Assembly (NCBI GenBank): GCA_050010535.1
Contig: JBEKKT010000003.1
Span: forward strand, 1,374-65,373
DNA from: Methanomassiliicoccales archaeon
GTDB taxonomy: Archaea; Thermoplasmatota; Thermoplasmata; Methanomassiliicoccales; JACIVX01
DNA: 64,000 nt
Direction: 5' to 3'
Part shown: positions 37,078 to 54,852 of the stretch, one piece after another
How positions within the stretch are numbered: position 1 is the stretch's first letter
How the letters are laid out: each line of letters begins with the position of its first letter
Notes under the pieces: generated by a model
The model's database searches: none
The model's input: the letters and a program-made list of their open reading frames with translations, nothing else
What the model was told of the DNA's origin: nothing
Program-made: the position numbers and the translations under genes

Positions 37078-37131
37078 GCCCTTGGCCCCTCAGCAACTTT
37101 TTAAAGCGGGCCAATGGTATTCCCCCTCCTC

Positions 37132-39753
37132 ATGACTCAATACGAAGCCGTGCCTACCGAGAGGAAGTGGCAGAAGAAGTGGAAGGAGTGGGATCTTTAC
37201 AGGTTCGATCAGTCGTCCTCGACTCCCGTTTATAGCGTTGACAACCCGCCGAGGTACACATCCGGCTCCCTGCACTTGGGACATGCCACTGGATATTCCT
37301 TGATTGATTTCGCTGCGAGATATCACCGAATGAGAGGGTACAACGTCTTCTTCCCCCTTTGCTTCGACGTGAACGGGACGCCCACGGAGGTCAGGGTCGA
37401 AAAGAAGTACGGGATCACGAAGCTGTCGATACCGAGGCAGGAGTACATCAAGCTCTGTAGCGAATACGCGAATAGCTTCATAGATGAGATGACTCACCAG
37501 TTCGAGATCCTCGGGGAATCGATGGACCCGAGCATCTACTATCAGACCGACGCGCCCTACTACAGAAGAATCACCCAGATATCGTTTCTGAGGATGCTCG
37601 AAAAGGGCATCGTTTACAAAGGGACTTACCCCGTCAACTGGTGCCCGAGGTGCATCACCGCCCTGGCAGATGCTGAAATCGAGTACCAGCAGAACGTCAC
37701 TAAGCTCAATTTCGTCAAGTTCCGCGTGAAGGGTACGGACGAATGCGCCATCATTGCTACCACGAGGCCGGAGCTCATCTGCACGTGCCAGCTCGTGGCG
37801 GTCCATCCTGATGACAAGGCCAAGAAGGCATTGGTCAGTGGGACCCTTCTCACCCCTATTTACGACAGAGAGGTCAAGATCATCGCGGATCCGAAGGTCG
37901 ACCCGAAGTTCGGATCGGGAATCGTCATGATCTGCACGATCGGGGACAAGGATGACCTGGAATGGGTCATGAAATATGATCTTCCATTCGAGAAAGGAAT
38001 CGACGAGCAGGGGAGGATGACCGAGGTCGCAGGAAAGTATTCAGGGCTGCCAGTGAGAGAGGCGAGGAAGAGGGTGATCGAGGATCTTAAGGAAGCCGGG
38101 CTTCTGGTCAAACAGGAGGACACGGAACAGAACGTCAGCACCTGCTGGCGCTGTCACGAACCGATCGAGTTCCTCCAGGTGCCCCAGTGGTTCCTGAAGA
38201 CCCTCGACTTCAAGGACGATGTCCTGGCGAAATCAAATGAACTGAGGTGGTTCCCAGACTTCATGAAGGTCCGCCTGCGCGATTGGGTGGAATCCCTCGA
38301 ATGGGACTGGGTAATATCAAGACAACGGTACTTTGCAACCCCGATCCCCATATGGGAGTGCGTGGAGTGCGGCCAGGTAGTTCCGGCGAGGGAAGAGGAC
38401 TGTTATGTCGATCCCACCGTGGACCCCCCCATTGTCGAGAAGTGCCCGAAATGCGGGGGCAAGCTCAAGGGTTGCGAGGATGTGTTCGACACCTGGATGG
38501 ACTCAAGCATCTCGCCCCTCTACAATACCTACTGGCTCCGAGACCTGGAGAAGTTCAAGAGACTCTATCCGATGTCCCTTCGCCCGCAGTCGCACGACAT
38601 CATCCGGACCTGGGCATTCTACACGCTTCTTAGAGAGCATTTGCTCGTGGCACAGAAGCCCTGGAACGACATCATGATTCACGGATTCATCATGGCCGCG
38701 GATGGCACCCCAATGCACTCATCCCTGGGGAACGTGATCGACCCGATGCCGATCCTGGAGAAGAACGGAGCAGATGCACTCCGATATTATGCATGCACCT
38801 GCTCGCTCGGCGAGGACAACGCGTTTAGGGAGAAGGACGTCGTGCATGGCGGCAGACTCTGCACGAAGCTGTGGAACATTGGCAAGTTCGTCGGGAGCGT
38901 CGTCACGGAGCAACCGAACATGGAGGGGCTGCGCCCCACCGACAAGTGGATACTTAGCAGATACAGCAGAGTGGTCGAGTCCGCCACGGGGCACTATGAC
39001 AACTACTCTTTCGACAAGGCGATGAGGGCGATAGAAGACTTTGTGTGGCACGAGTTCGCCGACCACTACTTGGAAATGATCAAGTTCAGGACCAGAGACC
39101 CAAGCGATGAAGGCGTCAAGTTCACGCTCTATACCGTCTGTCTCGGGATTTTGAAAATGCTCGCTCCTCTACTACCTCACGTCACTGAGGAAGTGTACCA
39201 AACCAGCTTCCGGGCGATCGAGGGGAACAAGAGCATACACGTGAGCAAGTGGCCCGTGCCAGTTCTTGTTGACGAAAAGGAGGAGGGGCGCGGAGAGTTG
39301 GTGAAAGAGGTCATTGGCGCCCTGAGATCATGGAAGGCCGAGAATGGGATTCCCCTAAACGAGGAGATAGCCCTGATCGAACTCATCGGGGAGGGAGCGG
39401 AGCGGCTGTTCGGCTGCGAGAGGGACATTGCTCAGACGATCAGGGCGAAAGAGCTCAAGATAGAAAGACAGGTCGAGCTAGAAGAGAAGATAGTCGCGCT
39501 GAAGCCCGTGATGTCGAGGATTGGGCCGATGTTCAAACAGAAGGCGAATGAGATCATCGACAGGTTGCAGGCACTTGACCCCGCCGAGGTCGCTGCTTCG
39601 ATCGATGCTACTCCAGTCGAAATCGGATTGTCGGATGGGTCAACAGTTCAAGTGGACAAGGATCTTGTGACTTTCAAGAGGAAGCTCGTTCTGCACGGCG
39701 AAGAAGTGAAGACATTCCAGGTCAGGAAAGTGCTGGTCGCGGTGCAGAGATGA
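37132..39753 (+). CDS. valS: valine--tRNA ligase (class I Val/Ile/Leu family)
   Basis: VDNPPRYTSGSLHLGHA (HIGH), a CP1 editing region, the KMSKS variant PMHSSLGN, and a C-terminal coiled region are present. Length is about 873 aa. Val specificity is inferred from length and motif style. Confidence 0.8.
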   Translation: MTQYEAVPTERKWQKKWKEWDLYRFDQSSSTPVYSVDNPPRYTSGSLHLGHATGYSLIDFAARYHRMRGYNVFFPLCFDVNGTPTEVRVEKKYGITKLSIPRQEYIKLCSEYANSFIDEMTHQFEILGESMDPSIYYQTDAPYYRRITQISFLRMLEKGIVYKGTYPVNWCPRCITALADAEIEYQQNVTKLNFVKFRVKGTDECAIIATTRPELICTCQLVAVHPDDKAKKALVSGTLLTPIYDREVKIIADPKVDPKFGSGIVMICTIGDKDDLEWVMKYDLPFEKGIDEQGRMTEVAGKYSGLPVREARKRVIEDLKEAGLLVKQEDTEQNVSTCWRCHEPIEFLQVPQWFLKTLDFKDDVLAKSNELRWFPDFMKVRLRDWVESLEWDWVISRQRYFATPIPIWECVECGQVVPAREEDCYVDPTVDPPIVEKCPKCGGKLKGCEDVFDTWMDSSISPLYNTYWLRDLEKFKRLYPMSLRPQSHDIIRTWAFYTLLREHLLVAQKPWNDIMIHGFIMAADGTPMHSSLGNVIDPMPILEKNGADALRYYACTCSLGEDNAFREKDVVHGGRLCTKLWNIGKFVGSVVTEQPNMEGLRPTDKWILSRYSRVVESATGHYDNYSFDKAMRAIEDFVWHEFADHYLEMIKFRTRDPSDEGVKFTLYTVCLGILKMLAPLLPHVTEEVYQTSFRAIEGNKSIHVSKWPVPVLVDEKEEGRGELVKEVIGALRSWKAENGIPLNEEIALIELIGEGAERLFGCERDIAQTIRAKELKIERQVELEEKIVALKPVMSRIGPMFKQKANEIIDRLQALDPAEVAASIDATPVEIGLSDGSTVQVDKDLVTFKRKLVLHGEEVKTFQVRKVLVAVQR

Positions 39754-39791
39754 TCCAGCACCACGACCTGAGCGCCCGCAAGATCCGATAA

Positions 39792-41207
39792 CTAGCTGGC
39801 CGAACGGCGCGGCACCGGATCGGCTCTGATCCTCTTACCACGATAGTCCGCCTGATCAAGGCCCTTCATCGCGTTGTAAGCCACGTCCTTGTGAACCTCG
39901 AACTCGCTAGACTTCTCCCCCAGTTCAACATGACCGATGGCTATCTCGCTGATGTCCCCCCTTTTCCGAACGAACTCGACGATGTCGTTCATTCCAACCT
40001 TGTCCGCCTTCCCGAGGTTGATTCTGAACTTCACCATGCCGAATATGTCCACATACTCGTCGAAGTCCCACACCTTCCTGACAACATCCCTTTCCCCGGT
40101 CGTCGGGACCTCCGCTTGCTCGATCCCCGCTCCTCCGAATTCCTTGATTCCCTCGAGAAGATGCTCCTCGTCAGAGCTGACGAAAGTGATGGCCTTTCCT
40201 TCCTTGCCAGCCCTGCCTGTCCGCCCGATGCGGTGCACATACCACTCGGGACTCTCAGGTATGTCGTAGTTGATGACGATGGTTACATCCTCGATGTCCA
40301 AGCCCCTCGCGGCCACGTCCGTCGCGATGAGCACCTTCACCTTGCCCTTGCGGAAATCGGTCAGGACCCGCTCCCTCTGAGCCTGTGAAAGATCACCGTG
40401 CAGCGCCTCGGCCGGATAGCCATAGGATTTCAATCGCTGCTCCAGGATGTCCACCATCCGTTTCGTGGAGCAGAAGACAATCGCTTTGGGCTTCTCCTTG
40501 TCAAGGACCCTGCAGAGGGCCCATATCTTGTTCTTCCTGCCGACCTTGAAGTATATCTGTTTGGTCGACGGAAGGACGAGCTCTTCCTCGCTGATGATAA
40601 CCATTTCCGGATTCTTCATGTGGTCCGCGCCGAGCCTTCTGACCCCCTCAGGGATCGTGGCCGAGAAGAGGTACGTGTTCCGCTCCTTCGGAATTTGCCT
40701 GATGATGTAGTCAATGTCCTCAATGAAACCCATGTCAAGCATCCGGTCTGCCTCGTCGAGAACCAGGAAGCGAATGCCGCTCAGGTCCAGGGTCTTACGC
40801 TTTATATGGTCTATGACTCTTCCCGGAGTGCCTGACACGATATCGACCCCTCTCTTCAGGGCCTCGAACTGGACGGATATCGCCTGTCCACCGTATACTG
40901 GAATCGTCTTGATGTCCAAGTGCGCTCCGAGCTTCTTTATCTCTTCAGAGACTTGAATGGCGAGCTCACGGGTCGGCACAAGCACGAGCGCACTCGGCTT
41001 CATCCCGTGGCGCATCTTCTGAAGGATGGGGATCGCGAACGCAGCAGTCTTCCCGGTGCCGGTTTGTGCCTGCGATATGACATCTCTTCCCTGTGCCATC
41101 AATGGTATCGCTGCCAGCTGCACAGGCGTAGGTTCGGTGAACCCCATTTCCTCTATAGATCTCATTATTCGAGAGTCAATGTTCAGTGATTCAAAACCAT
41201 CGCTCAT
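39792..41207 (-). CDS. DEAD-box ATP-dependent RNA helicase with a C-terminal DbpA-like RNA-binding domain
   Basis: It has the Q motif region, AQTGTGKTAAF, VLDEADRML, SAT, and HRIGRTGRAG. The C-terminal part (FRINLGKADKVGMNDIVEF) is typical of DbpA/DeaD RBDs. Confidence 0.9.
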   Translation of the reverse strand: MSDGFESLNIDSRIMRSIEEMGFTEPTPVQLAAIPLMAQGRDVISQAQTGTGKTAAFAIPILQKMRHGMKPSALVLVPTRELAIQVSEEIKKLGAHLDIKTIPVYGGQAISVQFEALKRGVDIVSGTPGRVIDHIKRKTLDLSGIRFLVLDEADRMLDMGFIEDIDYIIRQIPKERNTYLFSATIPEGVRRLGADHMKNPEMVIISEEELVLPSTKQIYFKVGRKNKIWALCRVLDKEKPKAIVFCSTKRMVDILEQRLKSYGYPAEALHGDLSQAQRERVLTDFRKGKVKVLIATDVAARGLDIEDVTIVINYDIPESPEWYVHRIGRTGRAGKEGKAITFVSSDEEHLLEGIKEFGGAGIEQAEVPTTGERDVVRKVWDFDEYVDIFGMVKFRINLGKADKVGMNDIVEFVRKRGDISEIAIGHVELGEKSSEFEVHKDVAYNAMKGLDQADYRGKRIRADPVPRRSAS

Positions 41208-41354
41208 GATTCATCACGCTAACGAGGAGTCCGATGACACTTATGTTCTATAACCTTTGCCTCTATCGGGGGGGGTTCAGTGGATGTCACCGACTGGACA
41301 CGCAAATGAAACAAAGTTTATATGAAGCAAGGACGTTCAGATGGGCAGGGCCAC

Positions 41355-41428
41355 GCGGGCGTAGTGTAGACTGGTTATCACTTAAGCTTGCCAAGCTTAA
41401 AACTCGGGTTCAAATCCCGACGCCCGCA
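41355..41428 (+). tRNA. tRNA-Gly (GCC)
   Basis: The sequence is GCGGGCG TA GTGTAGACTGGTTATCAC T TAAGC TTGCCAA GCTTA AAAC TCGGG TTCAAAT CCCGA CGCCCGC A. It forms a perfect acceptor stem, anticodon stem and T stem, with anticodon GCC. No CCA is encoded. Confidence 0.9.
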
Positions 41429-41731
41429 CTCTCAATTGGGGATATGTATGTGATTCCGGCAAAGGATACAAAGAAAAAGGACCTTTGAGACTGACGGCGA
41501 TTCGCGAGACAATCGAAGCTTAGGCAGAGGACCGCAACGTGCCGAAGCTTTTCAATCTAATGGATTTGCTCACTTTAGGCGAAAGTCCCTTATACTTGAC
41601 TGATCTGTCCCGGTATTAGGCTAAATTGAATAGCCAAGCTGGGCTTGGTAACTGGCACGGATGCAAAACCGACAAGTTCCACCAGGATGAGGCGTTAGAT
41701 TTAGTCAAGAGTCAGATGGAGGTGAATAGAA

Positions 41732-41884
41732 GTGTACGACAGGCCACCGCGCGAAATGCACAAGGCGGTTTGCTCCGATTGCGGCAAGGAATGCGAAGTT
41801 CCTTTCAAGCCCACAGACGGCAGACCAGTATATTGCCGCGATTGCTACCAGAAGCATCGCCCACCGAGGCGAAGCAGGTACTAA
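41732..41884 (+). CDS. CxxC-x17-CxxC zinc-ribbon protein (50 aa, absent from the ORF track)
   Basis: My own translation from GTG 41732, with GGAGGTGA 7 nt upstream, is (M)YDRPPREMHKAVCSDCGKECEVPFKPTDGRPVYCRDCYQKHRPPRRSRY-TAA. This is a widely conserved small zinc-ribbon pattern. Overlapping track ORF 41626..41925 is in another frame and is rejected. Confidence 0.75.
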   Translation: MYDRPPREMHKAVCSDCGKECEVPFKPTDGRPVYCRDCYQKHRPPRRSRY

Positions 41885-41891
41885 ACATCAA

Positions 41892-41942
41892 GGCATTAAG
41901 AATGCCTAGTGAGCGGATTTTTTAGCTCCAAAAATCTTTTTT
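41892..41942 (+). terminator. putative transcription terminator (two hairpins with oligo-T tracts)
   Basis: Directly after the zinc-ribbon stop there is a GGCATT-AAG-AATGCC hairpin. It is followed by GATTTTT(T)-AGCTCC-AAAAATC and a T6 tract at 41937..41942. Oligo-T tracts are the known archaeal termination signal. Confidence 0.45.
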
Positions 41943-42457
41943 GTTATTACTCTGCAATTGTACAAGCCGGGGGGCCTGGCTTGTCCTGTATGCCGATGAT
42001 TTGACCCCTGGATCACGCCACTCCAGGTCAGCTAGATCATCAAACGCTGGAGCGAACGGAATCGGAAGCTCATCGATATTCGTCGGCTGACAAAGAGTCT
42101 GCGGCATTGAGACATAGATCGCAAGCAAACTGCAAGACCGAGGATACAAATTCCGTGGCTGGATTGATCGGTCCGTCAACGGTTTCAGAGGTCGCTCATA
42201 CGAGACACGGAGCAGTCCTTATGTTTTCGTCGGAGGCGACTCGGACGATGGGGGCGAAAAGTCGAAGCATTATTAATAATACGTGCACGATAATCGATGC
42301 AAATCCTTCAATTCTTGATGGTTTTACCCTTCATAATGAAGTATTGCCATTCTACCCGAAGTAATGTGCCGTATTCAGGCTTATCTATCTGAGATTCTCG
42401 GATACATTTTTAAGAACAAAGCACGATTGCCCACACCAGAAAAGGGGGTTCTGTCAT

Positions 42458-44365
42458 ATGGAGGAGAAGCAACTGATACAATATCCGCCCCATCTCCGAT
42501 GGATCTTGGACAGAGCTTTGGACGATCCGAAGGGATTTTGGGGTGAGATTGCTGAGGAACTTCACTGGTTCAAGCGATGGAACAACATCTTCGAGGGGAG
42601 CGGCCCTAACTTCAAGTGGTTCGTAGGCGGCGAGACGAACCTCTGCTACAACTGCCTCGACTATCACGTCAAGAGGGGTAAGGGTAACAGGGCTGCCATC
42701 ATCTGGGAAAACGGCGAGAACGAGCGACCAAGGGTCCTAACTTATAACGAGTTGCTCTTCGAAGTAAAGCGTTTCGCAGGCGCCCTGAAAGCACAAGGCG
42801 TGAAGAAAGGTGACAGAGTCACGATTTACATGCCCATGATCCCTGAAGCCGCGATCGCGATGCTGGCGACGGTGAGGATCGGCGCCGTGCACTCCGTCGT
42901 TTTCGGAGGGTTCGGAGAAGGTGCCCTGGCCGACAGGATCGACGATGCTGGGTCTGAAGTCGTCGTGACAGCGGACATCGGATTGCGAAGAGGCAAGCCG
43001 ATCCAGCTTAAGGAGGTCGTTGACCAGGCACTCAACATGGCAAAGGGGGTCAGGAAGGTCATCGTCCTGAAAAGGGGGACGAAAGAGCCACCGATGACGG
43101 CAGAGAGGGACGTTTACTGGAACGATGCCATTGAGAAAGGTGCTGGCCAGGACACGGATGCAGTTCCGATGAAGGCGGACGAACTGGCATTCATCCTATA
43201 CACCTCTGGGACAATGGCCAAGCCGAAAGGCACGGTGCAGCCTCACGGGAGCTATCAGGTGTACGTCTATGCCATGGGCAAATGGGTGTACGATTTGAGG
43301 GAAACCGATACCTGGTGGTCGACCTCAGATGTTGGATGGATAGTCGGTCACAGCTACGTTGTGTACGGCCCTCTGCTGGTAGGCTGCTCGACTATCATGT
43401 ACGAAGGATCACCGGACTTCCCGACGCCCGACGTGTGGTGGAAAATCGTGGAGAGATACAAGGTCACTCAGATGTGGATCTCACCAACTGGCGTGAGGGG
43501 CCTGATGCAGTATGGCGATGACTACCCGAACAAGCACGACATGAGCTCCGTCAGGCTGGTCGTTTGCGCCGGCGAGGTGTTAAACCCGCCAGCGTATGAA
43601 TGGCTCTCGAAGAAGGTATTCCACGGCAGGATCCCGGTTGTGGACCATATGTGGCAGACGGAGACGAGCGGCCCAATTGTCGGCAACCCCGTGGGAATAT
43701 CTATGCTGCCGATCATACCGGGTTGCGCTACAATAGCACTGCCTGGGATTGAGGCGGACATAGTCAACGATAAGGGAGAAACGCTTCCGCCGGGAGTCGA
43801 AGGTAACTTCGTCATTCGCAGGCCGTTCCCCGGGCTGACCCCGACCATCTGGAGGGACCCGGAGAGGTATGTCAGGGATTATTGGACGAGGATACCGGGC
43901 TGTTACTACACAGGCGATGGTGCATCAAGAGACCAGAACGGGTACATAACCTTCGTCGGCAGATTCGATGAGATCATCAAGATAGCCGCGCACCGGGTCG
44001 GGACGATAGAGATCGAGTCCGCCCTGCTCTATCACCCAGCGGTCGCCGAGGCGGCGGTTGTGGGAATGCCAGACGAGCTGAGAGGGGAGGTGGCTTTCGC
44101 CATTGTCGTCCTGAAGCCTGGCTACGAGGCCTCGGACAAGATGAAGGCTGAACTCAAGGCCCAAGTAAGGAAATCGATGGGCGCTCTCGTGGTAATTGGA
44201 GATATGGCTTTCGTAAATAAACTGCCCAAGACGAGGAGCGGCAAGATAATGAGAAGGGTGATTAAGGCGGTCGTTGCGAAGCAACCACTAGGCGACTACT
44301 CCACAATGGAAGATCCCACGGCGATCGACGAGGTCAAGAGGGCCTTGGCTAAAGCCAACAAGTGA
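42458..44365 (+). CDS. acs: acetyl-CoA synthetase (AMP-forming)
   Basis: The 635-aa ORF has WWSTSDVGWIVGHSY, YTSGTMAKPKG, and TGDGASRDQNGYITFVGRFDEIIKIAAHRVGT. The C-terminal LPKTRSGKIMRR contains the acetylatable lysine context. Confidence 0.93.
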   Translation: MEEKQLIQYPPHLRWILDRALDDPKGFWGEIAEELHWFKRWNNIFEGSGPNFKWFVGGETNLCYNCLDYHVKRGKGNRAAIIWENGENERPRVLTYNELLFEVKRFAGALKAQGVKKGDRVTIYMPMIPEAAIAMLATVRIGAVHSVVFGGFGEGALADRIDDAGSEVVVTADIGLRRGKPIQLKEVVDQALNMAKGVRKVIVLKRGTKEPPMTAERDVYWNDAIEKGAGQDTDAVPMKADELAFILYTSGTMAKPKGTVQPHGSYQVYVYAMGKWVYDLRETDTWWSTSDVGWIVGHSYVVYGPLLVGCSTIMYEGSPDFPTPDVWWKIVERYKVTQMWISPTGVRGLMQYGDDYPNKHDMSSVRLVVCAGEVLNPPAYEWLSKKVFHGRIPVVDHMWQTETSGPIVGNPVGISMLPIIPGCATIALPGIEADIVNDKGETLPPGVEGNFVIRRPFPGLTPTIWRDPERYVRDYWTRIPGCYYTGDGASRDQNGYITFVGRFDEIIKIAAHRVGTIEIESALLYHPAVAEAAVVGMPDELRGEVAFAIVVLKPGYEASDKMKAELKAQVRKSMGALVVIGDMAFVNKLPKTRSGKIMRRVIKAVVAKQPLGDYSTMEDPTAIDEVKRALAKANK

Positions 44366-44525
44366 ACGCGGAACTGACGATTGGAACGGAGTGACAATCG
44401 GTCGGAGAGGCTGAATGCCGCTCGGCCGTCTTCCTTTTTCTTTCATTCCATTGCTGTTCCAACCTTTGGTATTGACAGACACCTTGAAATATCCGCCATC
44501 ATGTTACACTTTAGAGGGGAAGCCA

Positions 44526-46394
44526 GTGGCAAAGGATTGTAAGGAAGACTTGAGGCTGAAGCTAAGGACGGCCAAGGACGCCGTCGATGTGATTGAGAGA
44601 GGACAACGGGTCTTCATCGGCACTGCCTGCGGAGAGCCGCAGATGCTCGTGAAGGCGCTCGTCGCCAAGGCAGATTCGCTCGCCGACAACGAGATAATCC
44701 ACACACTATCCCTAGGCCTCACCCCTTACTCTGAAGAGAAGTTCACGGATCAGTTCAGAGTCAATGCCTTCTTCATCGGACCCAACGTACGGACCTCCGT
44801 CAACGAAGGACGTGCTGATTATACCCCCGTCTACCTGTCCGAGATCGGGAACCTGCTGGAGTAGGGTAGGATTCCAATCGACGTGGCGTTAATCCAGGTC
44901 TCTCCGCCGGATGAACACGGTTACTGCAGCTTCGGCGTCTCGGTGGACATAACGAAGACTGCCACTGAGGCGGCTGATGTCGTCATCGCCCAGATCAATC
45001 AGAACATGCCCAGGGTATTGGGGGACAGCTTCATCCACATCTCCGACATCGACTACCTGGTGGAGGGCAATGAGCCGTTGCTGGAGTGGCCGAGCGTCGA
45101 TCCCGGCACGCAAATAGAGGCGGACAGCATTGGGCGGTTCGTTGCAGACCTTGTCGAAGACGGCTCCACAATCCAGATAGGATATGGAGCGATCCCGAAC
45201 TCCGTGCTGAAGAATTTGAAGGACAAGAGGGACCTTGGGGTCCACACGGAGATGTTCTCGGACGGTATCGTTGACCTTGTCGAGTCCGGAGTCGTGAATG
45301 GCAAGAGGAAGACCGTCCACAAAGACAAGATAATCGCATCCTTCTGCATCGGCAGCAAGAGCCTGTTCGACTTCGTCCACAATAACCCTGCGATCGAGTT
45401 CCATCCATCCAACTACACAAACGACCCTTGTCTGATCGGCAGGAACGAGAAGATGGTAGCCATCAACTCCGCCCTCGAGGTGGATCTCACAGGCCAGGTC
45501 TGCGCAGACCAGATCGGTTACATGTTCTATTCCGGACTGGGAGGACAGGTGGATTTCGTGAGGGGCGCTGCCCGTTCCAAAGGCGGAAAACCGATTATCG
45601 CACTCCCTTCGACCGCCCAGGGCGGGCAGGTCTCCAGAATAGCCCCAAGACTTTCCGACGGTGCTGGTGTAACGACGACTAGGGGCGACGTCCACTATGT
45701 CGTCACCGAGTATGGAGTTGCGGAGCTGCATGGAAAGAGCATAATGCAGCGGGCCCTGGCAATGATCAACATCGCTCATCCGAAGTTCAGGGAGGACCTG
45801 CTGGCAGCGGCGAAGTTCCTTCGATACGTCTTCCTCGATCAATCCGATGTCCCTTATCGCGGACTTCCATATCCGCAGGAATATGAGACGTACAGAACCT
45901 TCGGCGACTCGCAGGTTTTCTTCAGGCCGATCAGGCCGACCGACGAAGAACCCCTGAAGGATCTTTTCTATTCGTTCTCTCAGAGGTCAATATACCTCCG
46001 TTTCATGGGGCCGAAGATCAGGATGCCACACAGGGAGTTGCAGTCATTTGTCAACATCGATTACGACACCGCAATGGCAATCGTCGGCGTCGTGCGCGAG
46101 AAGGAAAGGTTGAAGATCATCGCGGTTGGGAGATACGTACTGGACAAGAAGACTAACGACGCGGAAGTGGCGTTCGCCGTACACGATGACTGGCAGAACA
46201 AAGGTATCGGCACATTCCTTCTAGGTTATCTGATACGTATAGCCAAGGAAAGAGGAATAAGGACCTTCTCTGCAGAGGTGCTCGCAGAAAACAGGCCGAT
46301 GCTTGACGTCTTCTACCAGTCAGGAGTCAAGGTCGAAACGACCGTGGAAGAGGGCACATACAGTTTAGTCCTCAATCTCCAGCAGAAGCTATAG
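44526..46394 (+). pseudogene. acetyl-CoA hydrolase/transferase-GNAT (Pat-type) fusion interrupted by one in-frame TAG
   Basis: Track ORFs 44415..44864 and 44883..46394 are in the same frame, separated only by TAG 44862..44864. Across the stop the sequence reads YLSEIGNLLE-TAG-GRIPIDVALIQVSPPDEHGYCSFG. The N-terminal part is AcetylCoA_hydro-like. The last ~190 aa are a Pat-type GNAT (FRPIRPTDEEPLKDLFYSFSQRSIYLRFMG...DYDTAMAIVGVV...DDWQNKGIGTFLL). The likely start is GTG 44526 after GAGGGGAA. Confidence 0.75.
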
Positions 46395-46414
46395 GCTCTG
46401 GACCGCGGACCCAT

Positions 46415-46906
46415 CTAACGGATTCTCTCGACGTTCCCGACGTAGCTGGCTATGTGGTCAGAGTGCTCTGCCTCTTCCCGTATCAGCAGGTCGATCGTAG
46501 AGAAGAAGAACGGCAAGTCCTCAGTCTTGATAAAACGGTCCACGTCGGAGTGCTTGAGTGCTTCCCTGATGTTAACGTAAGTATCATACGCCAGCTTCTC
46601 ATATTTCGAAAGGTCCATCATGATCTCGAATTCCGTCTTGTTCTTGAAGTTGAAGGCATGCGGCTGAAGCGGCAAGGCCTCGGGCCCAAGTGAGATACTA
46701 ATCTTCGATATCATCTTTTCGACCAGGGTTCTATGCTTCTCCGACTCGTAGATGAGCTCGAAAATGACATCCCGAAACTCGTCCTTCTTGACGTTTATGT
46801 AACCTTCCCACTGGGAGACTGACTCAAAACCTGCTTCGATCTCGAGCGCCTTCTTCAAGAAGCTTGCCAGTTCTTCCCCCGTTCTGACTTCGACCAAAGG
46901 GGGCAT
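46415..46906 (-). CDS. ferritin-like (rubrerythrin-type four-helix bundle) protein
   Basis: The 163-aa ORF has paired E..H motifs (YESEKHRTLVEKM and REEAEHSDHI), consistent with a diiron ferritin-like fold. Confidence 0.6.
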   Translation of the reverse strand: MPPLVEVRTGEELASFLKKALEIEAGFESVSQWEGYINVKKDEFRDVIFELIYESEKHRTLVEKMISKISISLGPEALPLQPHAFNFKNKTEFEIMMDLSKYEKLAYDTYVNIREALKHSDVDRFIKTEDLPFFFSTIDLLIREEAEHSDHIASYVGNVERIR

Positions 46907-47221
46907 CGCTTTTTGATAATACTTTTAGATATTTAACAACCGGGAAACCTCCTTCGATCTTTTGAGGCAGAATCAAGAAAGCTGGATGAAGGTTGGAGTC
47001 CCCTCGTCATCTCTTGAACACATCACTTGGAAAATCGACACTCTCACGGTTCGACATGATTCGGACCAGAAAGAAAGACGCCCAGAAGGGTGGAATATCG
47101 AGGAAGGAAATGGTTTGCCGATCGGCGCTGGCCAGACGTAACGGCCCAGCTCAAGCAGTATCTCCCCGTCTCTGGTGCTAAGTAGTGTGGCTGTCTAGAG
47201 CATCTCGCCCCGATCAGGACC

Positions 47222-47650
47222 TCACTTCTTCCTCTTGCCTTCCTTCACCGATGTGAAGAAATCGTGGTGCTCTTCCTCTTCCTCGAGGATTTCCTTGAAT
47301 ATGAACTCGGTGGTCGGATCCCCCTCGGCCGCAGCAACTTTCTGGATCCCTTTATACATGACAATCGCTCCCATTTCTGCCTTGATGTCGTTGTCCACCA
47401 TCTCCCAAAGATCTCCACCGACCTCTATCGTGGCTGGTTTTGTCGTCGGAAGACCACCAAGATACCAGAGTCGCTCGGCAATCTTCTCCGCGTGCTTCAT
47501 TTCCGCAACCGCGATGTCCTGAAACTCGTCAGAAACCGCGAAGTGCTCCGGCCCGGCCCATTGCACGTGTTGCCACATGTACTGGACAGAAACCTGAATC
47601 TCGCTTGCGATTGCCTTGTTCAGCAAGTCCTTTAGCTTCTGTGATGTCAA
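47222..47650 (-). CDS. bacterioferritin/ferritin-like protein
   Basis: AIASEIQVSVQYMWQH, VAEMKHAEKIAERLWYLGGLPT and EEEEEHHDFF fit the bacterioferritin diiron ligand pattern. Length is 142 aa. Confidence 0.75.
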   Translation of the reverse strand: MTSQKLKDLLNKAIASEIQVSVQYMWQHVQWAGPEHFAVSDEFQDIAVAEMKHAEKIAERLWYLGGLPTTKPATIEVGGDLWEMVDNDIKAEMGAIVMYKGIQKVAAAEGDPTTEFIFKEILEEEEEHHDFFTSVKEGKRKK

Positions 47651-47952
47651 ACAAATTCCTCCTGTCTCAGCCTGCCATTGCGCAGGTCTATATTGCTATT
47701 CCGACTGAAGGCTAATAAACCTTTTGGAATTCGGAACGGCAACTGTTAGCCACTGGGATGTCAGTCGCCAAGAAGCCCCCGATCGCAAGCGGACCTGCTC
47801 GGTCTCAGTCAACCGGAAAGAAGTAAGCTTACACTCGCCACGAGGGACATCTTCTGCGTTTGCGGATGTTTCGGTCAAAACGTCTCAGAAGGGCCTCGCA
47901 CCAAGGCATCCCGATTCTTATTAGGTCGCTTCTCAATTGCAGATCTGTGAGG

Positions 47953-48540
47953 ATGAGCCCAAGTTCATGGGTCAGGTTCGGGGCGGTTGCGGGTATCGTT
48001 GGAGCGACACTTTTCTCGGCTATGTGGGTCATTGCGGCTGTGAAAGATGGTCATTGGATACTGGGCGAGCAAACGCTCAGCGAACTTGGAGGAAATAGAC
48101 CCGGATTGTTTTTCTTCAATTCGGGCGTGATCCTTGAGGGTACGCTTGCGCTCGTCTTCACATTCGGATTGTGGCACGCGATGGAGAAAACGACCCTGCA
48201 GAGGATCGGGAATATCCTCCTCCTTTTCGCCTCATGCGCCCTGATACTGGTCGGCATCTTTCCGATAACAACAGGACTGCTCCATGGCATCGCGAGCTAC
48301 GCGTTCTTCGGATTAACGCTCGTTGCGATTCTTCTTTTGATTCATCCACTGTGGACCGACGGAGACTTCGGTCCAGTGGCTGGGATCGTGACCCTGGGCG
48401 CTGTCATCCTGTCCATAGCGTTCCTTTCTTTTGCGACCATCGCGCTAACCGAGGCGGTAGGGGTCATTTGTCTCCTTGCGTGGTCATCGCTCCTTTCTGC
48501 AATGATGCTGAGGAAAAACACGATTTCGATCAGGACCTAG
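47953..48540 (+). CDS. DUF998 family membrane protein
   Basis: This hydrophobic ORF has WVRFGAVAGIVGATLF and GEQTLSELGG, typical of DUF998. ATG 47953 is preceded by GTGAGG. The track ORF starts earlier, at 47860. Confidence 0.65.
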   Translation: MSPSSWVRFGAVAGIVGATLFSAMWVIAAVKDGHWILGEQTLSELGGNRPGLFFFNSGVILEGTLALVFTFGLWHAMEKTTLQRIGNILLLFASCALILVGIFPITTGLLHGIASYAFFGLTLVAILLLIHPLWTDGDFGPVAGIVTLGAVILSIAFLSFATIALTEAVGVICLLAWSSLLSAMMLRKNTISIRT

Positions 48541-48565
48541 AGGAGCGTCCCGCTAGAAATCGGTC

Positions 48566-49648
48566 TCATCTAGTGGGTTTCTTCGTTCTGTACCTGTAGC
48601 TGATATTGCAGCTGCCCTCTCTGCTGACCATGCAGGGGCCGATGGGATTGCCTGGCGAGCATGTCGCTCCAAACGCTGGGCACTCTTCGGACGCGATCAG
48701 ACCCCGAAGCACCTCTCCGCATCTACACCCCTCCAGCTCGTCTTGGATGCTTGGCAAATCCTTGAGAGTCTTCGTATAGCGCAGCCTCGCATCTTGGAAT
48801 CGGAACTCATCGCTCAACTCAAGGGCGCTCTTCTTGATGACAGGCAAGCCCCTCCATGCTTTGTCCACGGGTGTGAAGACCCGCTTGACAAGGGCGAGTG
48901 CACGGGGGTTCCCTTCGGGTTTGACAACCCTCGTGTATTCGTTCTCGACCTCTGCCCTTCCCTCGGCCACCTGCCTCACGAGCATGTAGACCGCAACAAG
49001 AAGGTCCAAAGGCTCGAATCCCGCGACAACCTGTGGAATATGCCTCTTCTCTGATATTTCGCGATAGGGACCAATACCGATGATTGTGGAAACGTGACCC
49101 GGTTCGATGAGCCCATCAACCTTCACCTCTCCCATCTCGAAAATAGTATCTAGGGCCGGTGACAGGAGCCTGTGACAGCTCAGCACCGAGAATGAATCTG
49201 GAACTCCGTCCGCAAGGGCGGACGCAGTCGTGGGGCTTGTCGTCTCGAAGCCGATAGCCAAGAACACGATCCTGCTTCCATCCTTCGCAAGACGAACGGC
49301 GTCGTCGACAGAGTAGACGACCCTCACGTCGCCGCCTCTGGCTCTTGCGTCCGCCAGGGACCCCCTCGGCGTCGGGACTGCAAGCATGTCGCCAAAGACC
49401 GCCAAAGTCACCCCGGAATCGACCAAGGCGATAGCTTCGCAGATCTCCCTAGAAGTCGTCACGCACACGGGACAGCCTGGACCCTGCCGAATCTCGATCC
49501 CCGCTTCCTTGAGGAGTCCCTGCAATCCGAACCTCACGAGAGTGTCCTGATGCGTCCCGCAGACGTGCATGAACCTCAAGTTGACATCGAACTTCTTGAT
49601 CTTGTCAATGATTCCCCTGGCAGTCGACTCGCCTCTGAAATGGAACAT
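48566..49648 (-). CDS. hypD: hydrogenase maturation protein HypD
   Basis: FMHVCGTHQD and GPGCPVCVT are present, together with the C-terminal Cys-rich end (CRCGEVLRG..CPAFGATCSPGNPIGPCMVS). Length is 360 aa. Confidence 0.92.
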   Translation of the reverse strand: MFHFRGESTARGIIDKIKKFDVNLRFMHVCGTHQDTLVRFGLQGLLKEAGIEIRQGPGCPVCVTTSREICEAIALVDSGVTLAVFGDMLAVPTPRGSLADARARGGDVRVVYSVDDAVRLAKDGSRIVFLAIGFETTSPTTASALADGVPDSFSVLSCHRLLSPALDTIFEMGEVKVDGLIEPGHVSTIIGIGPYREISEKRHIPQVVAGFEPLDLLVAVYMLVRQVAEGRAEVENEYTRVVKPEGNPRALALVKRVFTPVDKAWRGLPVIKKSALELSDEFRFQDARLRYTKTLKDLPSIQDELEGCRCGEVLRGLIASEECPAFGATCSPGNPIGPCMVSREGSCNISYRYRTKKPTR

Positions 49649-50023
49649 CTATTTCTCAACCACCTTCACGGAAACCACTCGGCAACTTGCGCCCTTCTTG
49701 ACTTCGATCTTCTGTCCACACGACGGGCATCGGAGTATGGGGACGGAGAGATGAAATGATTCGTCCTCCACATAGTCAATTCTCCCTTCATAGCTACAAA
49801 AGGGGCACCTGACCATCACTTCCTCTTCCTCGATTCTCAGCCCTGCCCCTTCGAGCATTGTGTCCTTTGAGAGGACCTCGAACGCAAACTGAAGTTGCCC
49901 GTGCCCAAGGAAGGTGAGTCTCCCGACCGCGAGAACGACCTCTTCCACTTTCTCGACGTCATGCTTGCTGAGCTCGGAGAGAACGGCGTCGATGATTCCT
50001 GACATTACCGAGACTTCATGCAT
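49649..50023 (-). CDS. hypA: hydrogenase nickel incorporation protein HypA
   Basis: It has the MHEVSVM N-terminus (nickel-binding MHE) and a zinc site, CPFC...CPSC. It lies immediately upstream of hypD. Confidence 0.88.
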   Translation of the reverse strand: MHEVSVMSGIIDAVLSELSKHDVEKVEEVVLAVGRLTFLGHGQLQFAFEVLSKDTMLEGAGLRIEEEEVMVRCPFCSYEGRIDYVEDESFHLSVPILRCPSCGQKIEVKKGASCRVVSVKVVEK

Positions 50024-50223
50024 CCAGCTCCTCAACGGGATCACATCTATTAATTATCTCTTCGAAACGACCCTTTGAGACCGCCCTTCGGGGCAGAGGC
50101 AGACTTCCATACCGGCTCCAAAGGCGCTCATCCTAGAATCCGAGGCTCTCTCTTTCCAGCGTCGCCAGGAACAATGTGGCAATATTCTTATACGCTTATC
50201 AAGATACGAGCGAAAGGTGCGGC

Positions 50224-50514
50224 ATGGCAACAGGTGAGAGGAAATCCAGGAAAGAACTGACCCTCGAGTCCATCGTTGAAGGTAAGAAGATGGAGGCCTA
50301 CGTCGAGCATAGGACGAAGGACATGCACTCCTGCTGGATCTGTGGAACGATAGGCTACAAGAAGAAGGCGATGAAGAACGTCGGCTCGAAGTGGATCTGC
50401 ATCGACTGCCTGCGCAACCTGAAGGAAGTCCTTGAGACCTTGGACCAGTGGGAGGCGGAGATCCAAATGGAAAAGGAGATGAGCAAGAAGATCGACGAAA
50501 CGCTCGGCATATAG
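50224..50514 (+). CDS. hypothetical small zinc-ribbon-like protein
   Basis: From ATG 50224 the 96-aa product has CWIC...CIDC and a charged coiled C-terminus. No family is recognised. Confidence 0.5.
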   Translation: MATGERKSRKELTLESIVEGKKMEAYVEHRTKDMHSCWICGTIGYKKKAMKNVGSKWICIDCLRNLKEVLETLDQWEAEIQMEKEMSKKIDETLGI

Positions 50515-50539
50515 TCGCGACCGGCGTCACCTCTCGATA

Positions 50540-51172
50540 TCAATTCTTCTGAAAGACCTTTGAGTAGTAGTCGCAGTATCTGTTGACTGGGCAGCCGCTG
50601 CATTTCGGTCCGACCGGCCTGCAGACCGTCTTTCCGAATGAAACGAAAAGCGTGTTGACGACCTTCCAGAGGTCCCTGGGAACAATCTGGACAAATTCAC
50701 GTTCCGTTTCTTCCGGGCCCTTCGTCTTGACGAGCCCGATCCTGTTCGAGACACGATGGACGTGAGTGTCGACGGGTATCGCATCCAGACCGAATCCATA
50801 GACTAGGACGCAGTTGGCCGTCTTCCTTCCTACGAGCGGAAGGGCGAGGAGCGATTCCATGTCGACAGGCACCTCATCGCCATAGTCCTCATGAATTATC
50901 CTGGCAATATCCTTGATCGCCTTCGACTTGACCGCAGGGAAACCAGCGGGGCGGATCAAAGAACGTATCACATCCAATGGGGCGTCAGCCAGCGCCTTTG
51001 GTGTGTCGAATCTTGAGAACAGCTGGGTTGACGCTACATGAGTATTCTTGTCCTTCGTCCGTTGTGACAGAACCGTGGAAATGAGCACGTGAAAAGGATC
51101 TGTCTTCCAGCTTACCTCCCCCTCGTCGCCCTTCCCAGGAAAAGCACCAGTTGGGAAGCTTCTTGCGATCAC
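50540..51172 (-). CDS. nth: endonuclease III (HhH-GPD DNA glycosylase/lyase)
   Basis: VLISTVLSQRTKD, LPLVGRKTANCVL, and the C-terminal 4Fe-4S loop CRPVGPKCSGCPVNRYC are present. GTG start. Confidence 0.9.
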   Translation of the reverse strand: MIARSFPTGAFPGKGDEGEVSWKTDPFHVLISTVLSQRTKDKNTHVASTQLFSRFDTPKALADAPLDVIRSLIRPAGFPAVKSKAIKDIARIIHEDYGDEVPVDMESLLALPLVGRKTANCVLVYGFGLDAIPVDTHVHRVSNRIGLVKTKGPEETEREFVQIVPRDLWKVVNTLFVSFGKTVCRPVGPKCSGCPVNRYCDYYSKVFQKN

Positions 51173-51185
51173 CTGGACAATCTTC

Positions 51186-52478
51186 CTAACGGGTTTCGTG
51201 CGAATCCCACCACCTCTTTCCCTCGCCTATAGTATAGAGAGAACCAGTCACAAGGACCGTGTCGTTCTTGGTCGAGACTGTCATTGCTCTCGCAAACGCC
51301 TCCCCGACGTCGCCGATCATCTCCACGTGAGAGCAGTGTTCTCTCAGAGCGTCACGTACTGTCGCCGCAGGGAAGGCGCGTTTAGTATCTGGCGATGTCG
51401 CAATCGCCATTGAGGCGATACTCCCAAAATGCTTTGAAATCCCGCTGAGGTCCTTGTCGTTCAGCACCCCGAGCACAAGGATTAATCTTCCCTTTGCCAG
51501 TCTCTTGATGTCGGCGGCAACGACAGCTGCTCCATCCGGAGTGTGACTTGCGTCAAGAATGACGTGTGGGGCTTTGGACAGCACCTCGATTCTCCCCGGC
51601 CAATCGACCTTACTGAGACCTTCGACTATCGCATCATCTGGCACATCGACTCCCCTTCCCCTAAGCTCAAGAAGGCAACCATACGACAATGCGATATTGG
51701 ACGCCTGATACGATCCGGGAAGAGGGACGTGAACCTCGCTGGAAAGACCGTGAAGAAGAACCGTTGTATCGTCCAGGGTCGACGAGATAAGCTGGTACTT
51801 GATGTCCTTGCCCACGATTCTGAGAGGAGACCTCTTGTTCTTTGACACCGAACGGAGCACCGCGAGCGCGTCCTCCTTGTCTTCGGCAGTTATTACTGGC
51901 ACCTCAGGTTTTATGATTCCCGCTTTCTCGCCAGCGATCTTCGTTATCGTGTCCCCTAGGTATCCTGTGTGCTCAAGGCCTATCCTCGTTATCACCGTGC
52001 AGTCCGGTGCTATCACATTCGTCGCATCCAGTCTTCCGCCCATGCCGACCTCCACGACGGCTTCCTCGACCTCCATGTCGACGAAGTAGGCGAACGCTAT
52101 TGCTGTTGTGATCTCAAAGAACGTGAGACGTCTATCCGAACCCGAAAGGGCCATCTCTTCGACGAACGGCCTGACGTCTTCGACCAGCGCCAGCAATTTG
52201 GAATCTGGGATCTTCACTCCATCCACTTGGATCCTTTCCCGAAAATCGAGGATGTGAGGGGACGTGTATAGACCGACCTTGTAACCCGCCTCTTTAAGCA
52301 CCGAAGAGGTCATTGCGCACACCGAACCCTTGCCGTTGGTGCCCGCGACATGGACCGACCTGAACTCCTTATGAGGATTTCCAAGATGTTCGAGGAGCTC
52401 GCTCACATTCCTGAGGCCAAACTTTATTCCCACCGTCTCAAGACCATAGAGCCAGTCGAGCGTTTCACGGTAGCCCAT
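51186..52478 (-). CDS. folC: folylpolyglutamate synthase/dihydrofolate synthase-like Mur ligase
   Basis: MGYRETLDWLYGL, the P-loop HVAGTNGKGS and the Mur ligase middle and C domains are present. ATG 52478 is preferred, since the 52541 start would overlap the upstream gene by 38 nt. Confidence 0.85.
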   Translation of the reverse strand: MGYRETLDWLYGLETVGIKFGLRNVSELLEHLGNPHKEFRSVHVAGTNGKGSVCAMTSSVLKEAGYKVGLYTSPHILDFRERIQVDGVKIPDSKLLALVEDVRPFVEEMALSGSDRRLTFFEITTAIAFAYFVDMEVEEAVVEVGMGGRLDATNVIAPDCTVITRIGLEHTGYLGDTITKIAGEKAGIIKPEVPVITAEDKEDALAVLRSVSKNKRSPLRIVGKDIKYQLISSTLDDTTVLLHGLSSEVHVPLPGSYQASNIALSYGCLLELRGRGVDVPDDAIVEGLSKVDWPGRIEVLSKAPHVILDASHTPDGAAVVAADIKRLAKGRLILVLGVLNDKDLSGISKHFGSIASMAIATSPDTKRAFPAATVRDALREHCSHVEMIGDVGEAFARAMTVSTKNDTVLVTGSLYTIGEGKRWWDSHETR

Positions 52479-52503
52479 CAACCCCTCGGATGCATGATGG
52501 TGT

Positions 52504-53301
52504 TTAAGGACTTTCCCCTTTATTGACAAGGTTCTCAACAAAGGACCCCAGCGTCTTGCCTTTGCGTCTCGCCGCGGCTTTCATCACCTTCATAATGCCC
52601 GAGCCGTACTGCGCCGCCTTCTTCTCCCTTGTCGCAATCTCTCCGAGACCGAGAGAGATACCAACATCCCTGAGCACGGCTTTTCGGACGCCATTCCTGA
52701 TGTGTTCTGCAACTGGAACCGCTTCCACGGCATCGATTACCCCGGGATGGAGATAGGGGTGCAGCACAGCCCTGCCGCAATACTCAGCGATTCGTCTCTC
52801 GTTCCTCAGACCGACGTCCAACAGACGAGCAAGGTCTTTTCTCATGCTCTCTCGCAGCTCGTCGAGAGGCATTCTTATGTATCTCGCGTATCCTCCAAAG
52901 AGCTCGTCGGCTCCCTGGCCGCTCACAAGCACATCCTCTTTCGAGCTCTTGGAGACGAAATACAGCGGCATTTCAAATGAAATCGTCAGCGGGTTTCTAG
53001 TGGAAATCAGTCTTGAAACGAGAATGACTGCTTGCATGATGTCCTCCTCATCGATGACCAAACCGACCCACGGCAATCCCATTGACGCTGCCGCGTGTTC
53101 CGCTGCAACAAGGTCGTGAGACCCTTCGATGCCAACCGTGTAAAGCGTCGGAGTGGAGCGATCGGCGATAACTGCTGCAAGTACGCTGCTATCCAATCCT
53201 CCAGAGAAGAGCAGCCCCGCCCCCCTTCGCGCGACCTGCTCATTCACAGCGAAAGTGAGCGCATCCAGTATGTTCCGGGTCCTGTTCATCTGTCGACTCA
53301 A
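52504..53301 (-). CDS. asparagine synthase C-terminal-domain-like PP-loop ATPase
   Basis: It has the LFSGGLDSSVLAA (SGGxDS PP-loop) motif and QGADELFGGYARY. At 265 aa it has no glutaminase domain. Confidence 0.7.
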   Translation of the reverse strand: MSRQMNRTRNILDALTFAVNEQVARRGAGLLFSGGLDSSVLAAVIADRSTPTLYTVGIEGSHDLVAAEHAAASMGLPWVGLVIDEEDIMQAVILVSRLISTRNPLTISFEMPLYFVSKSSKEDVLVSGQGADELFGGYARYIRMPLDELRESMRKDLARLLDVGLRNERRIAEYCGRAVLHPYLHPGVIDAVEAVPVAEHIRNGVRKAVLRDVGISLGLGEIATREKKAAQYGSGIMKVMKAAARRKGKTLGSFVENLVNKGESP

Positions 53302-53442
53302 TCCCTTCCTGGGTATTTAGTCTTCCTCTCGGGTCGACCTGATGCCTTAACGGGTTCTCACCATCCGAATTTCATATCCGCGCCAAATTCCCCTGAGTCT
53401 CGAATGAAAACTCTATAAAGGTACTAGCAGTTCCGGTGGAAG

Positions 53443-54852
53443 ATGGTGATGCATCTGGACCTACTCTTCAATCCGGCAAGCGTTGCGATAGTCGGAGCCT
53501 CTGACCATCCTGGAAAGATCGGCAACACGGTCGTCTTCAATCTTCTGCAGGGCAGCGCTAGAAAGCTCTATCCCGTCAACCCGAACGAAACAGAAGTACT
53601 GGGTCTAAAGTGCTATCCTAGCGTCAAGAGCCTGCCGGAGGTCGTGGACTTGGCAGTCCTCGCGGTGCCTGCGAAGCTAACGGTCGGCGTCGCAAGAGAG
53701 TGCGCTGAGGCCGGCGTACCCTATGTGATATGCATCGCAGCCGGATTCGGTGAGATAGGCGAGGAAGGGAAGGCGATGGAAGAGCGTTTGAGAGAGGCCA
53801 TAAGGGGCAGCGGAACGAGAATAATCGGGCCTAACACAATGGGGATCATCGCTCCGAGGTCCGACCTCGATACCTTCTTCACTCCCAGGGACAGAAGCCC
53901 AAGACCCGGAGATGGAGTCATATCCGTAATCTCGCAGAGCGGTTCTGTTCTCTGCGGAGTCTATGAGGGAGCGGAGGACACCGGGGTCGGACTCTCGACG
54001 GCCATCGGCCTCGGCAACAAGGTCGATCTGAATGAGAATGACTTCATGGAATACTTCAAGGATGATGACCTGACGCGATGCATAGTCCTCTATCTGGAAT
54101 CCTTCACAGACGGCAAGAGATTCCTCGAGTTATGCAAGGAAGTGACGCCAGACAAACCGGTCGTTGCGATCAAGGTCGGAAGGACCGAGAGAGGAGCGAA
54201 GGCCGCATCCTCCCACACTGGCGCCCTTGCGAGAGGTTCGGATGCATTGATAAATGGTGTTTTCAAGCAGTTCGGTATTGAGAGAGCCTACGACGAGCAG
54301 GAACTTCTCGACCACGCGAAAGTGCTTGCGTACCTCGACCATATAGACGGTGACAGGATCGCTGTTCTCAGCAACACCGGCGGTTTCGCGGTCATAGCGA
54401 CCGACTACATCGAATCGAAAGATAATGGCGTTGGGTTGCGGATGGCAACGATAAGCGACCACGCGAAGAAGGAGATCATGAGCAAGACCCAGTACTTCGC
54501 CTCCGCCCAGAACCCTGTGGACCTTACTGGAAGCGTCACCGACGAGACGTACGGTGATGCGCTCGAGATTCTTCAGAAGGAAGAGGACATCGACGCTATT
54601 CTCATACTACTCCAGCTTCAGGCGCCTCAACTCACGGAGGGCCTTGCGGACATCGTGGCAAGGATAGTCAACGAAGGCGGCAAGCCCGCGATTGTCTGCG
54701 CGATCGGCGGCAGCTTCCCAAGGCCGATGCTGAAGAGATTCGAACAGAAGGGGATACCTGCATATAGTTCGCTCAAACGCGCCATATGGTCCCTCAGAGC
54801 CCTCTACGACAGGGGAAAGTACCTCAAGAGAGTCGGCGCACTCAACGAGTAG
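53443..54852 (+). CDS. acdA: acetate--CoA ligase (ADP-forming) alpha subunit
   Basis: LFNPASVAIVGASDHPGKIG is the CoA-binding fold. ISQSGS, and ASSHTGALA with the phosphohistidine loop, are also present. Length is 469 aa. Confidence 0.88.
   Translation: MVMHLDLLFNPASVAIVGASDHPGKIGNTVVFNLLQGSARKLYPVNPNETEVLGLKCYPSVKSLPEVVDLAVLAVPAKLTVGVARECAEAGVPYVICIAAGFGEIGEEGKAMEERLREAIRGSGTRIIGPNTMGIIAPRSDLDTFFTPRDRSPRPGDGVISVISQSGSVLCGVYEGAEDTGVGLSTAIGLGNKVDLNENDFMEYFKDDDLTRCIVLYLESFTDGKRFLELCKEVTPDKPVVAIKVGRTERGAKAASSHTGALARGSDALINGVFKQFGIERAYDEQELLDHAKVLAYLDHIDGDRIAVLSNTGGFAVIATDYIESKDNGVGLRMATISDHAKKEIMSKTQYFASAQNPVDLTGSVTDETYGDALEILQKEEDIDAILILLQLQAPQLTEGLADIVARIVNEGGKPAIVCAIGGSFPRPMLKRFEQKGIPAYSSLKRAIWSLRALYDRGKYLKRVGALNE

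Follow-up and report, generated by a model that had tools for sequence, protein, structure and literature searches.

An in-frame amber codon, apparently a private G-to-T change, in the acs-linked CoA-transferase–GNAT gene of a Methanomassiliicoccales archaeon

In the methylamine methyltransferase genes mtmB, mtbB and mttB, in-frame TAG codons are read as pyrrolysine (Pyl); they are conserved across orthologues, and the residue that they specify is catalytic. Methanomassiliicoccales as an order generally carries the pyrrolysine system, pylSBCD (PMC4153887, PMC7824343, PMC10804542), and in one of its members, 'Ca. Methanomethylophilus alvus', ambers have also been described in genes other than those of methyltransferases. 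There the TAG interrupts a housekeeping or metabolic gene that is otherwise intact, and homologues of the gene are without it (Borrel et al. 2014, PMC4153887). That organism has nearly abandoned TAG as a stop; the published shares of TAG among stop codons are 1.6 % for 'Ca. M. alvus', 11.3 % for M. luminyensis and 4–5 % for Methanosarcina (PMC4153887). A more commonplace source of in-frame ambers is the ordinary nonsense allele or nascent pseudogene, or the consensus error in a metagenome-assembled genome (MAG), recognizable by one substitution, by the ancestral codon in sister genomes and by the lack of further lesions; in a MAG, a nonsense allele also makes the gene caller fall back to a downstream start.

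The gene described here carries one in-frame TAG (Table 1) and lies in a stretch of DNA of 64,000 bases, referred to below as the window. Like mtmB, mtbB and mttB, it has its TAG in frame, and its host is an archaeon from an order that encodes Pyl; in contrast to theirs, its TAG is unique to one assembly, occupies a variable position and falls in an unrelated enzyme family. The resemblance to the ambers of 'Ca. M. alvus' goes further, as the order is the same, the gene is otherwise intact and its homologues lack the TAG, but TAG provides about 40 % of the stops here and is unfixed even within the population. With ordinary nonsense alleles and consensus errors the locus agrees in every respect listed above, the sole twist being that the host belongs to an order that usually has an amber-suppressing tRNA-Pyl. 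The finding is an ordinary one, a young knockout mutation or an assembly error. An in-frame TAG in the genome of a Pyl lineage does not by itself warrant a pyrrolysine reading without comparative support, and in the present case sister assemblies settle the matter.

The gene product has described counterparts of its own. Prokaryotic lysine acetyltransferases have been sorted into a five-type KAT scheme, and the Pat/PatZ enzymes that regulate Acs belong to its types I–III (PMC8556138). Like them, the protein predicted here has a C-terminal Pat-like GNAT domain after a large acyl-CoA-binding domain, and its gene lies beside acs. The N-terminal domains of Pat/PatZ are an inactive NDP-forming acyl-CoA synthetase, or cAMP, ACT or NADP domains, whereas the one found here is a putative class I CoA-transferase that appears to have kept its catalytic Glu.

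Table 1. Features of the interrupted gene and of its surroundings. Positions are those of the window unless another sequence is named.
Feature	Position	Strand	Remarks
acs, AMP-forming acetate--CoA ligase	42458..44365	+	160 nt upstream of the GTG start; TIGR02188, 761 bits, above cut-off
Full gene, 622 codons plus stop	44526..46394	+	JGI gene call P0123 on Ga0427939_0000332, identical save for Glu113
The 112 codons before the in-frame stop	44526..44861	+	Partial N-terminal CoA-transferase subdomain with GTACGEPQ motif, without the catalytic residue
In-frame TAG, gene codon 113	44862..44864	+	First base T is the region's sole difference from other assemblies of the population (G; GAG, Glu)
Codon of Glu242 (GAG), HTEM motif	45249..45251	+	Aligns to Glu238 of Clostridium aminobutyricum 4-hydroxybutyrate CoA-transferase (3GK7); downstream of the TAG
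C-terminal 380 codons	45252..46394	+	Only part of the gene to have a protein accession, MGD0056445.1, in the NCBI MAG whose neighbouring genes are identical
GNAT domain, candidate Pat/PatZ type, residues about 447-622	45864..46391	+	PDB 9it0 (6e-20), 4nxy (6e-18), 4ava (2e-13)
Natural gene stop, also TAG	46392..46394	+	Orthologues end here with TGA, TAA or TAG
Corrinoid-associated cluster	59712..64000; L137 16678..22289		Corrinoid protein, CobW-like GTPase, radical-SAM/SPASM protein, two RACo/RamA paralogues, AsnC regulator
Corrinoid protein	61036..61758	-	TIGR02370, 191 bits, under the 215 cut-off

The interrupted gene and its product

The ORFs 44415..44864 and 44883..46394 were confirmed to share a common frame, with the TAG at 44862-44864 between them, and the peptide across it reads TPVYLSEIGNLLE*GRIPIDVALIQVSPPDEHGYCS. 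The original prediction had described two ORFs in one frame split by a single TAG, and its coordinates, frame and quoted peptide all check out. The ATG at 44415 is probably not the start of the gene; the true start is probably the GTG at 44526, which gives the 622 codons of the JGI gene call P0123. When fused, the translation had thousands of matches to single-chain proteins of about 615-640 aa, with E = 0 and a coverage of 97-100 %; these came mainly from MAGs of Methanomassiliicoccales/Thermoplasmata and, farther out, from Desulfobacterota and other bacteria. It is also colinear across the TAG with solved 4-hydroxybutyrate CoA-transferases, residues 10-429 aligning end to end with 9vag (E 3.5e-144), 3eh7 (1.4e-133), 3gk7 (2.9e-118) and also 3d3u. 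Three Pfam domains, AcetylCoA_hydro PF02550, AcetylCoA_hyd_C PF13336 and Acetyltransf_1 PF00583, were found on the identical intact product. Because of the single-chain homologues, these domains and the colinear alignment with PDB structures across the TAG, we treat the two ORFs as one interrupted gene and not as a chance pair. The same full-length homologues, Pfam domains and PDB alignment bear out the earlier description of an otherwise intact CoA hydrolase/transferase-GNAT gene, and the further claim that there are no other lesions holds as well, as only one base differs when the 1,980 bases of 44415..46394 are set against the intact gene on two independent contigs.

That the locus is naturally two genes at this point, an idea for which the GTG at 44883, six codons past the TAG, could be cited, is next to impossible. 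All 120 homologues among the matches listed are single chains of about 615-660 aa, the 98 orthologous loci described below are without exception continuous across the site, and the break would fall within the N-terminal CoA-transferase subdomain. Orthologues occurring as two genes had been named in the original prediction as the finding that would count against it, and none were seen among these loci. Exact look-ups among about 15 billion catalogued proteins returned neither the fragment ending ...NLLE nor the C-terminal pieces that would begin at 44883, 44943 or 45006, nor an intact 622-aa form started with M.

The N-terminal part of the product is, to judge from the structures to which it aligns, a class I CoA-transferase of the 4-hydroxybutyrate CoA-transferase / acetyl-CoA hydrolase family. 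The residue to which Glu242 aligns, Glu238, we take to be the catalytic glutamate of 4-hydroxybutyrate CoA-transferase AbfT (3GK7). Both Glu242 and the GxGGQ motif (SGLGGQVDF) are retained, and both are invariant in 20 homologues. The closest solved relatives of the GNAT domain are Pat/PatZ, with 4ava representing mycobacterial Pat, and the Streptomyces PatA GNAT. Its best NCBIfam match is acetyltransferase Pat NF058543 (E 1.6e-26), with a score of 92.9 bits where the equivalog cut-off is 460 bits.

In each of the ten Methanomassiliicoccales loci examined, acs is the gene directly upstream, while among the bacterial loci it was found within 2.5 kb in only three; besides the window, the acs-linked fusion is seen at loci L002-L005, L053 and L057-L060. 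Acs is likely to be a substrate or partner of the GNAT domain. We infer that the product may be a Pat-like protein acetyltransferase that acts on Acs or is coupled to it, and in which a putatively active CoA-transferase would serve as the sensor or partner domain. This combination of a CoA-transferase with a Pat-like GNAT stands outside the five-type scheme (PMC8556138), and the family appears to be uncharacterised. In its intact form, and with its synteny with acs, it may be worth studying in its own right.

The site in sister assemblies and in orthologues

Contigs from JGI 3300038425, 3300038451, 3300018015 and 3300018021 and from Logan SRR13021855 and SRR13021960 tile the 64,000-base window with no base left uncovered, at 99.98-100 % identity and with three variable sites in all. 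At two of them, 10752 and 18485, the window goes with the majority and the odd one is a single other contig in each case (L131 and L127, respectively). At the third, 44862, the window alone has T, and both covering contigs have G. One of these, the Logan contig SRR13021855_292116 (L001, 11,793 bp), corresponds to window 38197..49989 and has as its sole mismatch the G at 44862, which makes the codon GAG (Glu). The other, JGI contig Ga0427939_0000332 (L129, from 3300038425, 96.6 kb), matches the 21,908 bases of window 32458..54365 apart from that one base, and it too has GAG. A third assembly, Ga0427963_0001017, has a 622-aa gene call at the locus. Two contigs are on record with exactly the intact protein P0123. 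As a side observation, the population is near-clonal across at least four samples.

From this comparison we take the TAG to be a G>T substitution private to one assembly of a near-clonal Methanomassiliicoccales population, and GAG, for Glu, to be the ancestral codon. A single disabling change, intact closest relatives and an identifiable ancestral codon are all found together, as they are in nonsense alleles. The original prediction had offered a very recent nonsense change, for example from a Tyr codon, as one of its options; of these options it is the one that the evidence supports, with the Tyr codon giving way to the Glu codon GAG of L001 and L129.

The same codon was then compared over a wider range of genomes. 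A 36-mer spanning the site, in which N replaced the variable base, found no exact match in a scan of metagenome contigs, and a protein-guided scan of the metagenome contigs was used in its place. GTDB genomes and JGI metagenomes supplied 98 orthologous loci that span the site, and TAG occurs in none of them; the residues found there are S (43), E (18), N (13), R (8), D (5), T (4), A (3), K (3) and G (1). The closest species carry GAA or GAG, those at 88-93 % protein identity having GAA, and in each of eight close orthologues the reading frame continues for 506-507 codons beyond the site. Since the site is so variable, no special residue can be needed there. The alignment of orthologues at the TAG, which had been put forward as a check, thus returned a sense codon at 98 of 98 loci, and a conserved in-frame TAG, by which Pyl genes are recognized, is not among the features of this family. 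Pyrrolysine insertion by design, another of the options first considered, finds no support in an unconserved TAG at a variable site, in a genome where TAG is a frequent and interchangeable terminator.

The alternative of programmed stop-codon read-through without Pyl, by which one gene would give two products, has in its favour the bare fact of an in-frame stop with an intact coding sequence downstream, and nothing else. A signal of this kind would be conserved, yet neither the near-identical genomes nor any of the orthologues have the stop. Neither a PYLIS-like structure nor any other structure that might stimulate read-through was found downstream of the TAG when one was sought, and the 120 nt from the stop fold no more stably than shuffled sequences (z = -0.85). 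Sister genomes lack the TAG, so that an evolved signal would not be expected in the first place. The 112-aa product would moreover be a fragment of a domain and not a module. With neither a conserved stop nor a conserved stimulatory context or structure at the locus, and with the TAG absent from the near-identical assemblies and the 98 loci, we give this option from the original prediction practically no credence.

Origin of the T and consequence for the gene

The TAG is very probably an unprogrammed and private single-base G-to-T change at 44862 that reads as an ordinary stop, be it a true allele or an error of the consensus. The change would turn Glu113 (GAG) into an amber stop, and translation would end after 112 of the 622 residues, ahead of the presumed catalytic Glu242, the GxGGQ CoA-binding motif and the entire GNAT domain. 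In a genome that carries it, the gene would be knocked out and would represent a pseudogene in the making; both termination at codon 113 and the loss of function are what we would expect of such a stop. Re-initiation at GTG 44883, or at ATG 45252, where the annotation begins, would drop at least 119 N-terminal residues of the CoA-transferase and would at best yield a free GNAT domain. With the TAG read as a stop, either outcome would mean the loss of the enzyme as designed.

Public annotation bears on where the T resides. An NCBI MAG (locus tags ABSB83_) has proteins identical to those of the window under consecutive accessions: ValRS MGD0056441, DEAD helicase MGD0056442, Acs MGD0056444, MGD0056445, and MGD0056446 for the next gene. 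MGD0056445, which lies in mid-contig, is a 380-aa 'GNAT family N-acetyltransferase' identical to the translation of window 45252..46394, and the 5' 240 codons of the gene have no protein accession in that MAG. The public record is a truncated call of the 622-aa protein. No intact NCBI call of the gene was found for this population, and related MAGs have 619-aa calls. A truncated call in mid-contig is what a 5' lesion is expected to produce, and, with the order of the accessions, it suggests that the T is present in the deposited NCBI MAG sequence.

The odds between a real allele and a consensus error as the source of this T are close to even, and we lean slightly towards a real young allele. 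The other reading, that an error of sequencing, assembly or consensus has placed the stop in one deposited MAG sequence only, while the organism has GAG and an intact gene, we rate as possible, at somewhat less than an even chance. Three other assemblies of the population disagree with the window, two by contigs with GAG and one by its 622-aa call, but they may come from other samples, and a real sample-specific allele is equally compatible with them. Private differences between the assemblies amount to about one per 60 kb, which is of the order of assembler error; against this, substitution errors are rare in a short-read consensus. Selection filters real nonsense alleles and does not filter errors, and a nonsense change is a priori unlikely as a surviving real variant, which adds weight to the error alternative. 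The two remaining private differences, at 10752 and 18485, also alter amino acids, if they lie inside genes. On the other side, the truncated NCBI annotation means that the base persisted at least until deposition. Consensus error, which the original prediction had named as a check of the reads and not as a main option, is to be treated as a serious rival.

The biological weight of the G-to-T change is small. A single strain of an uncultured Methanomassiliicoccales from peat or wetland would, at the most, recently have lost a CoA-transferase/acetyltransferase that putatively regulates Acs.

TAG as a terminator, and the pyrrolysine machinery

One point that speaks against a plain knockout by the G-to-T change is that the order usually encodes Pyl, so that there is a small possibility of some suppression at a new UAG. 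How TAG is used elsewhere in the window is relevant here. In a greedy non-overlapping set of long ORFs from the window, TAG terminates 27 of 66, or about 40 %; among the 55 ORFs of at least 120 aa, the stops are TAG in 21, TGA in 23 and TAA in 11. Genes that end with TAG include those of RusA, NadA, KorC, UbiD, GltX, CysS, a DEAD helicase, a FolC-like protein, the ACD alpha subunit and Topo I, and their ends coincide with JGI/NCBI gene calls, as for GltX, Topo I and the DEAD helicase. For the TAG-ended genes between 44 and 55 kb, the CoA-transferase-GNAT gene included, orthologues in sister species stop at the same residue, with TAG, TGA and TAA interchangeable. The earlier observation that TAG ends many well-supported genes is confirmed by these counts, and the interchange of stops among orthologues strengthens it. 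No enrichment of nearby back-up stops after TAG was found for the ORFs of the window.

Avoidance of TAG as a terminator, which would be expected under constitutive Pyl decoding, is therefore not a feature of this genome region. A share of about 40 % cannot be reconciled with an amber codon that is efficiently and constitutively decoded, but it leaves room for a regulated Pyl system; in Pyl-decoding bacteria with a regulated cassette, 20-30 % of the stops are TAG (PMC4153887). As TAG is a normal terminator here, and the sister assemblies and all orthologues have a sense codon at the site, we do not regard the TAG at codon 113 as recoding.

A second same-frame pair of ORFs across a TAG was met in the window, namely korC (10431..10985) and the ORF 11118..11789, both on the + strand, and was rejected as a case of read-through. 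KorC is the gamma subunit of a 2-oxoacid:ferredoxin oxidoreductase, and 11118..11789 encodes the ATP-grasp (beta) subunit of an ADP-forming acyl-CoA synthetase; the two are unrelated genes with a spacer of 132 nt, called separately in all assemblies. The alpha subunit that matches this beta subunit is encoded far off, at 53443..54852.

Neither pylT, pylS nor pylBCD was found in the 64-kb window and about 10 kb of flanking sequence, nor was a gene for a Pyl methyltransferase, and the two tRNAs of the window, for Cys and Gly, do not include tRNA-Pyl. Pyl machinery may be encoded elsewhere in the genome. If the T is real and pylTSBCD are present, a fraction of ribosomes might insert Pyl at UAG113 and some full-length enzyme would be made, a form of incidental suppression that we hold to be improbable. 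UAG113 would then be a nascent Pyl codon like those proposed for 'Ca. M. alvus'. The lineage, Methanomassiliicoccales/Methanomassiliicoccaceae, is consistent with it, as pyl genes have been reported for the order (PMC4153887, PMC7824343, PMC10804542), and so is the tolerance of the site, where S, E, N, R, D, T, A, K and G occur, long basic residues included; new in-frame ambers can also persist in a tRNA-Pyl background, according to Borrel et al. (PMC4153887). It is opposed by the lack of pyl and Pyl methyltransferase genes in the window and its flanks, by a TAG that is conserved nowhere and is followed by no structure, and by the use of TAG for about 40 % of stops with no enrichment of back-up stops, which implies that any Pyl decoding is weak or tightly regulated. 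There is likewise a slim chance that a real allele is segregating in a Pyl-encoding population, with UAG113 partly read as pyrrolysine, as a polymorphic and unfixed amber in a gene other than that of a methyltransferase. Were this the case, the locus would offer a snapshot of the first step in the spread of Pyl codons inferred for 'Ca. M. alvus', taken while TAG is still a major stop. We retain the private G-to-T change, acting as an ordinary stop, as the preferred explanation.

The original prediction had drawn part of the plausibility of a Pyl system from corrinoid-methyltransferase-type genes at the end of the window. A corrinoid protein and its putative activases are indeed encoded there, and no methyltransferase gene adjoins the cluster 59712..64000, nor is there a pyl gene. 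The CobW-like GTPase of this cluster has 'CobW-related selenoprotein' as its best NCBIfam match, below the cut-off, and an ORF at 62090..62713 (-), antisense to a RACo/RamA gene and with no family match, was taken to be spurious. Start calls for the corrinoid protein disagree, at 240 aa in Logan and some JGI assemblies and 212 aa in NCBI and other JGI assemblies. Of the two tRNAs, tRNA-Cys(GCA) at 23181..23264 (-) is unlisted by the full-window Rfam scan at the gathering threshold and reached 43 bits in a local scan. It measures 84-85 nt and has about 13 extra bases in the region of the anticodon loop, which are probably an archaeal tRNA intron.
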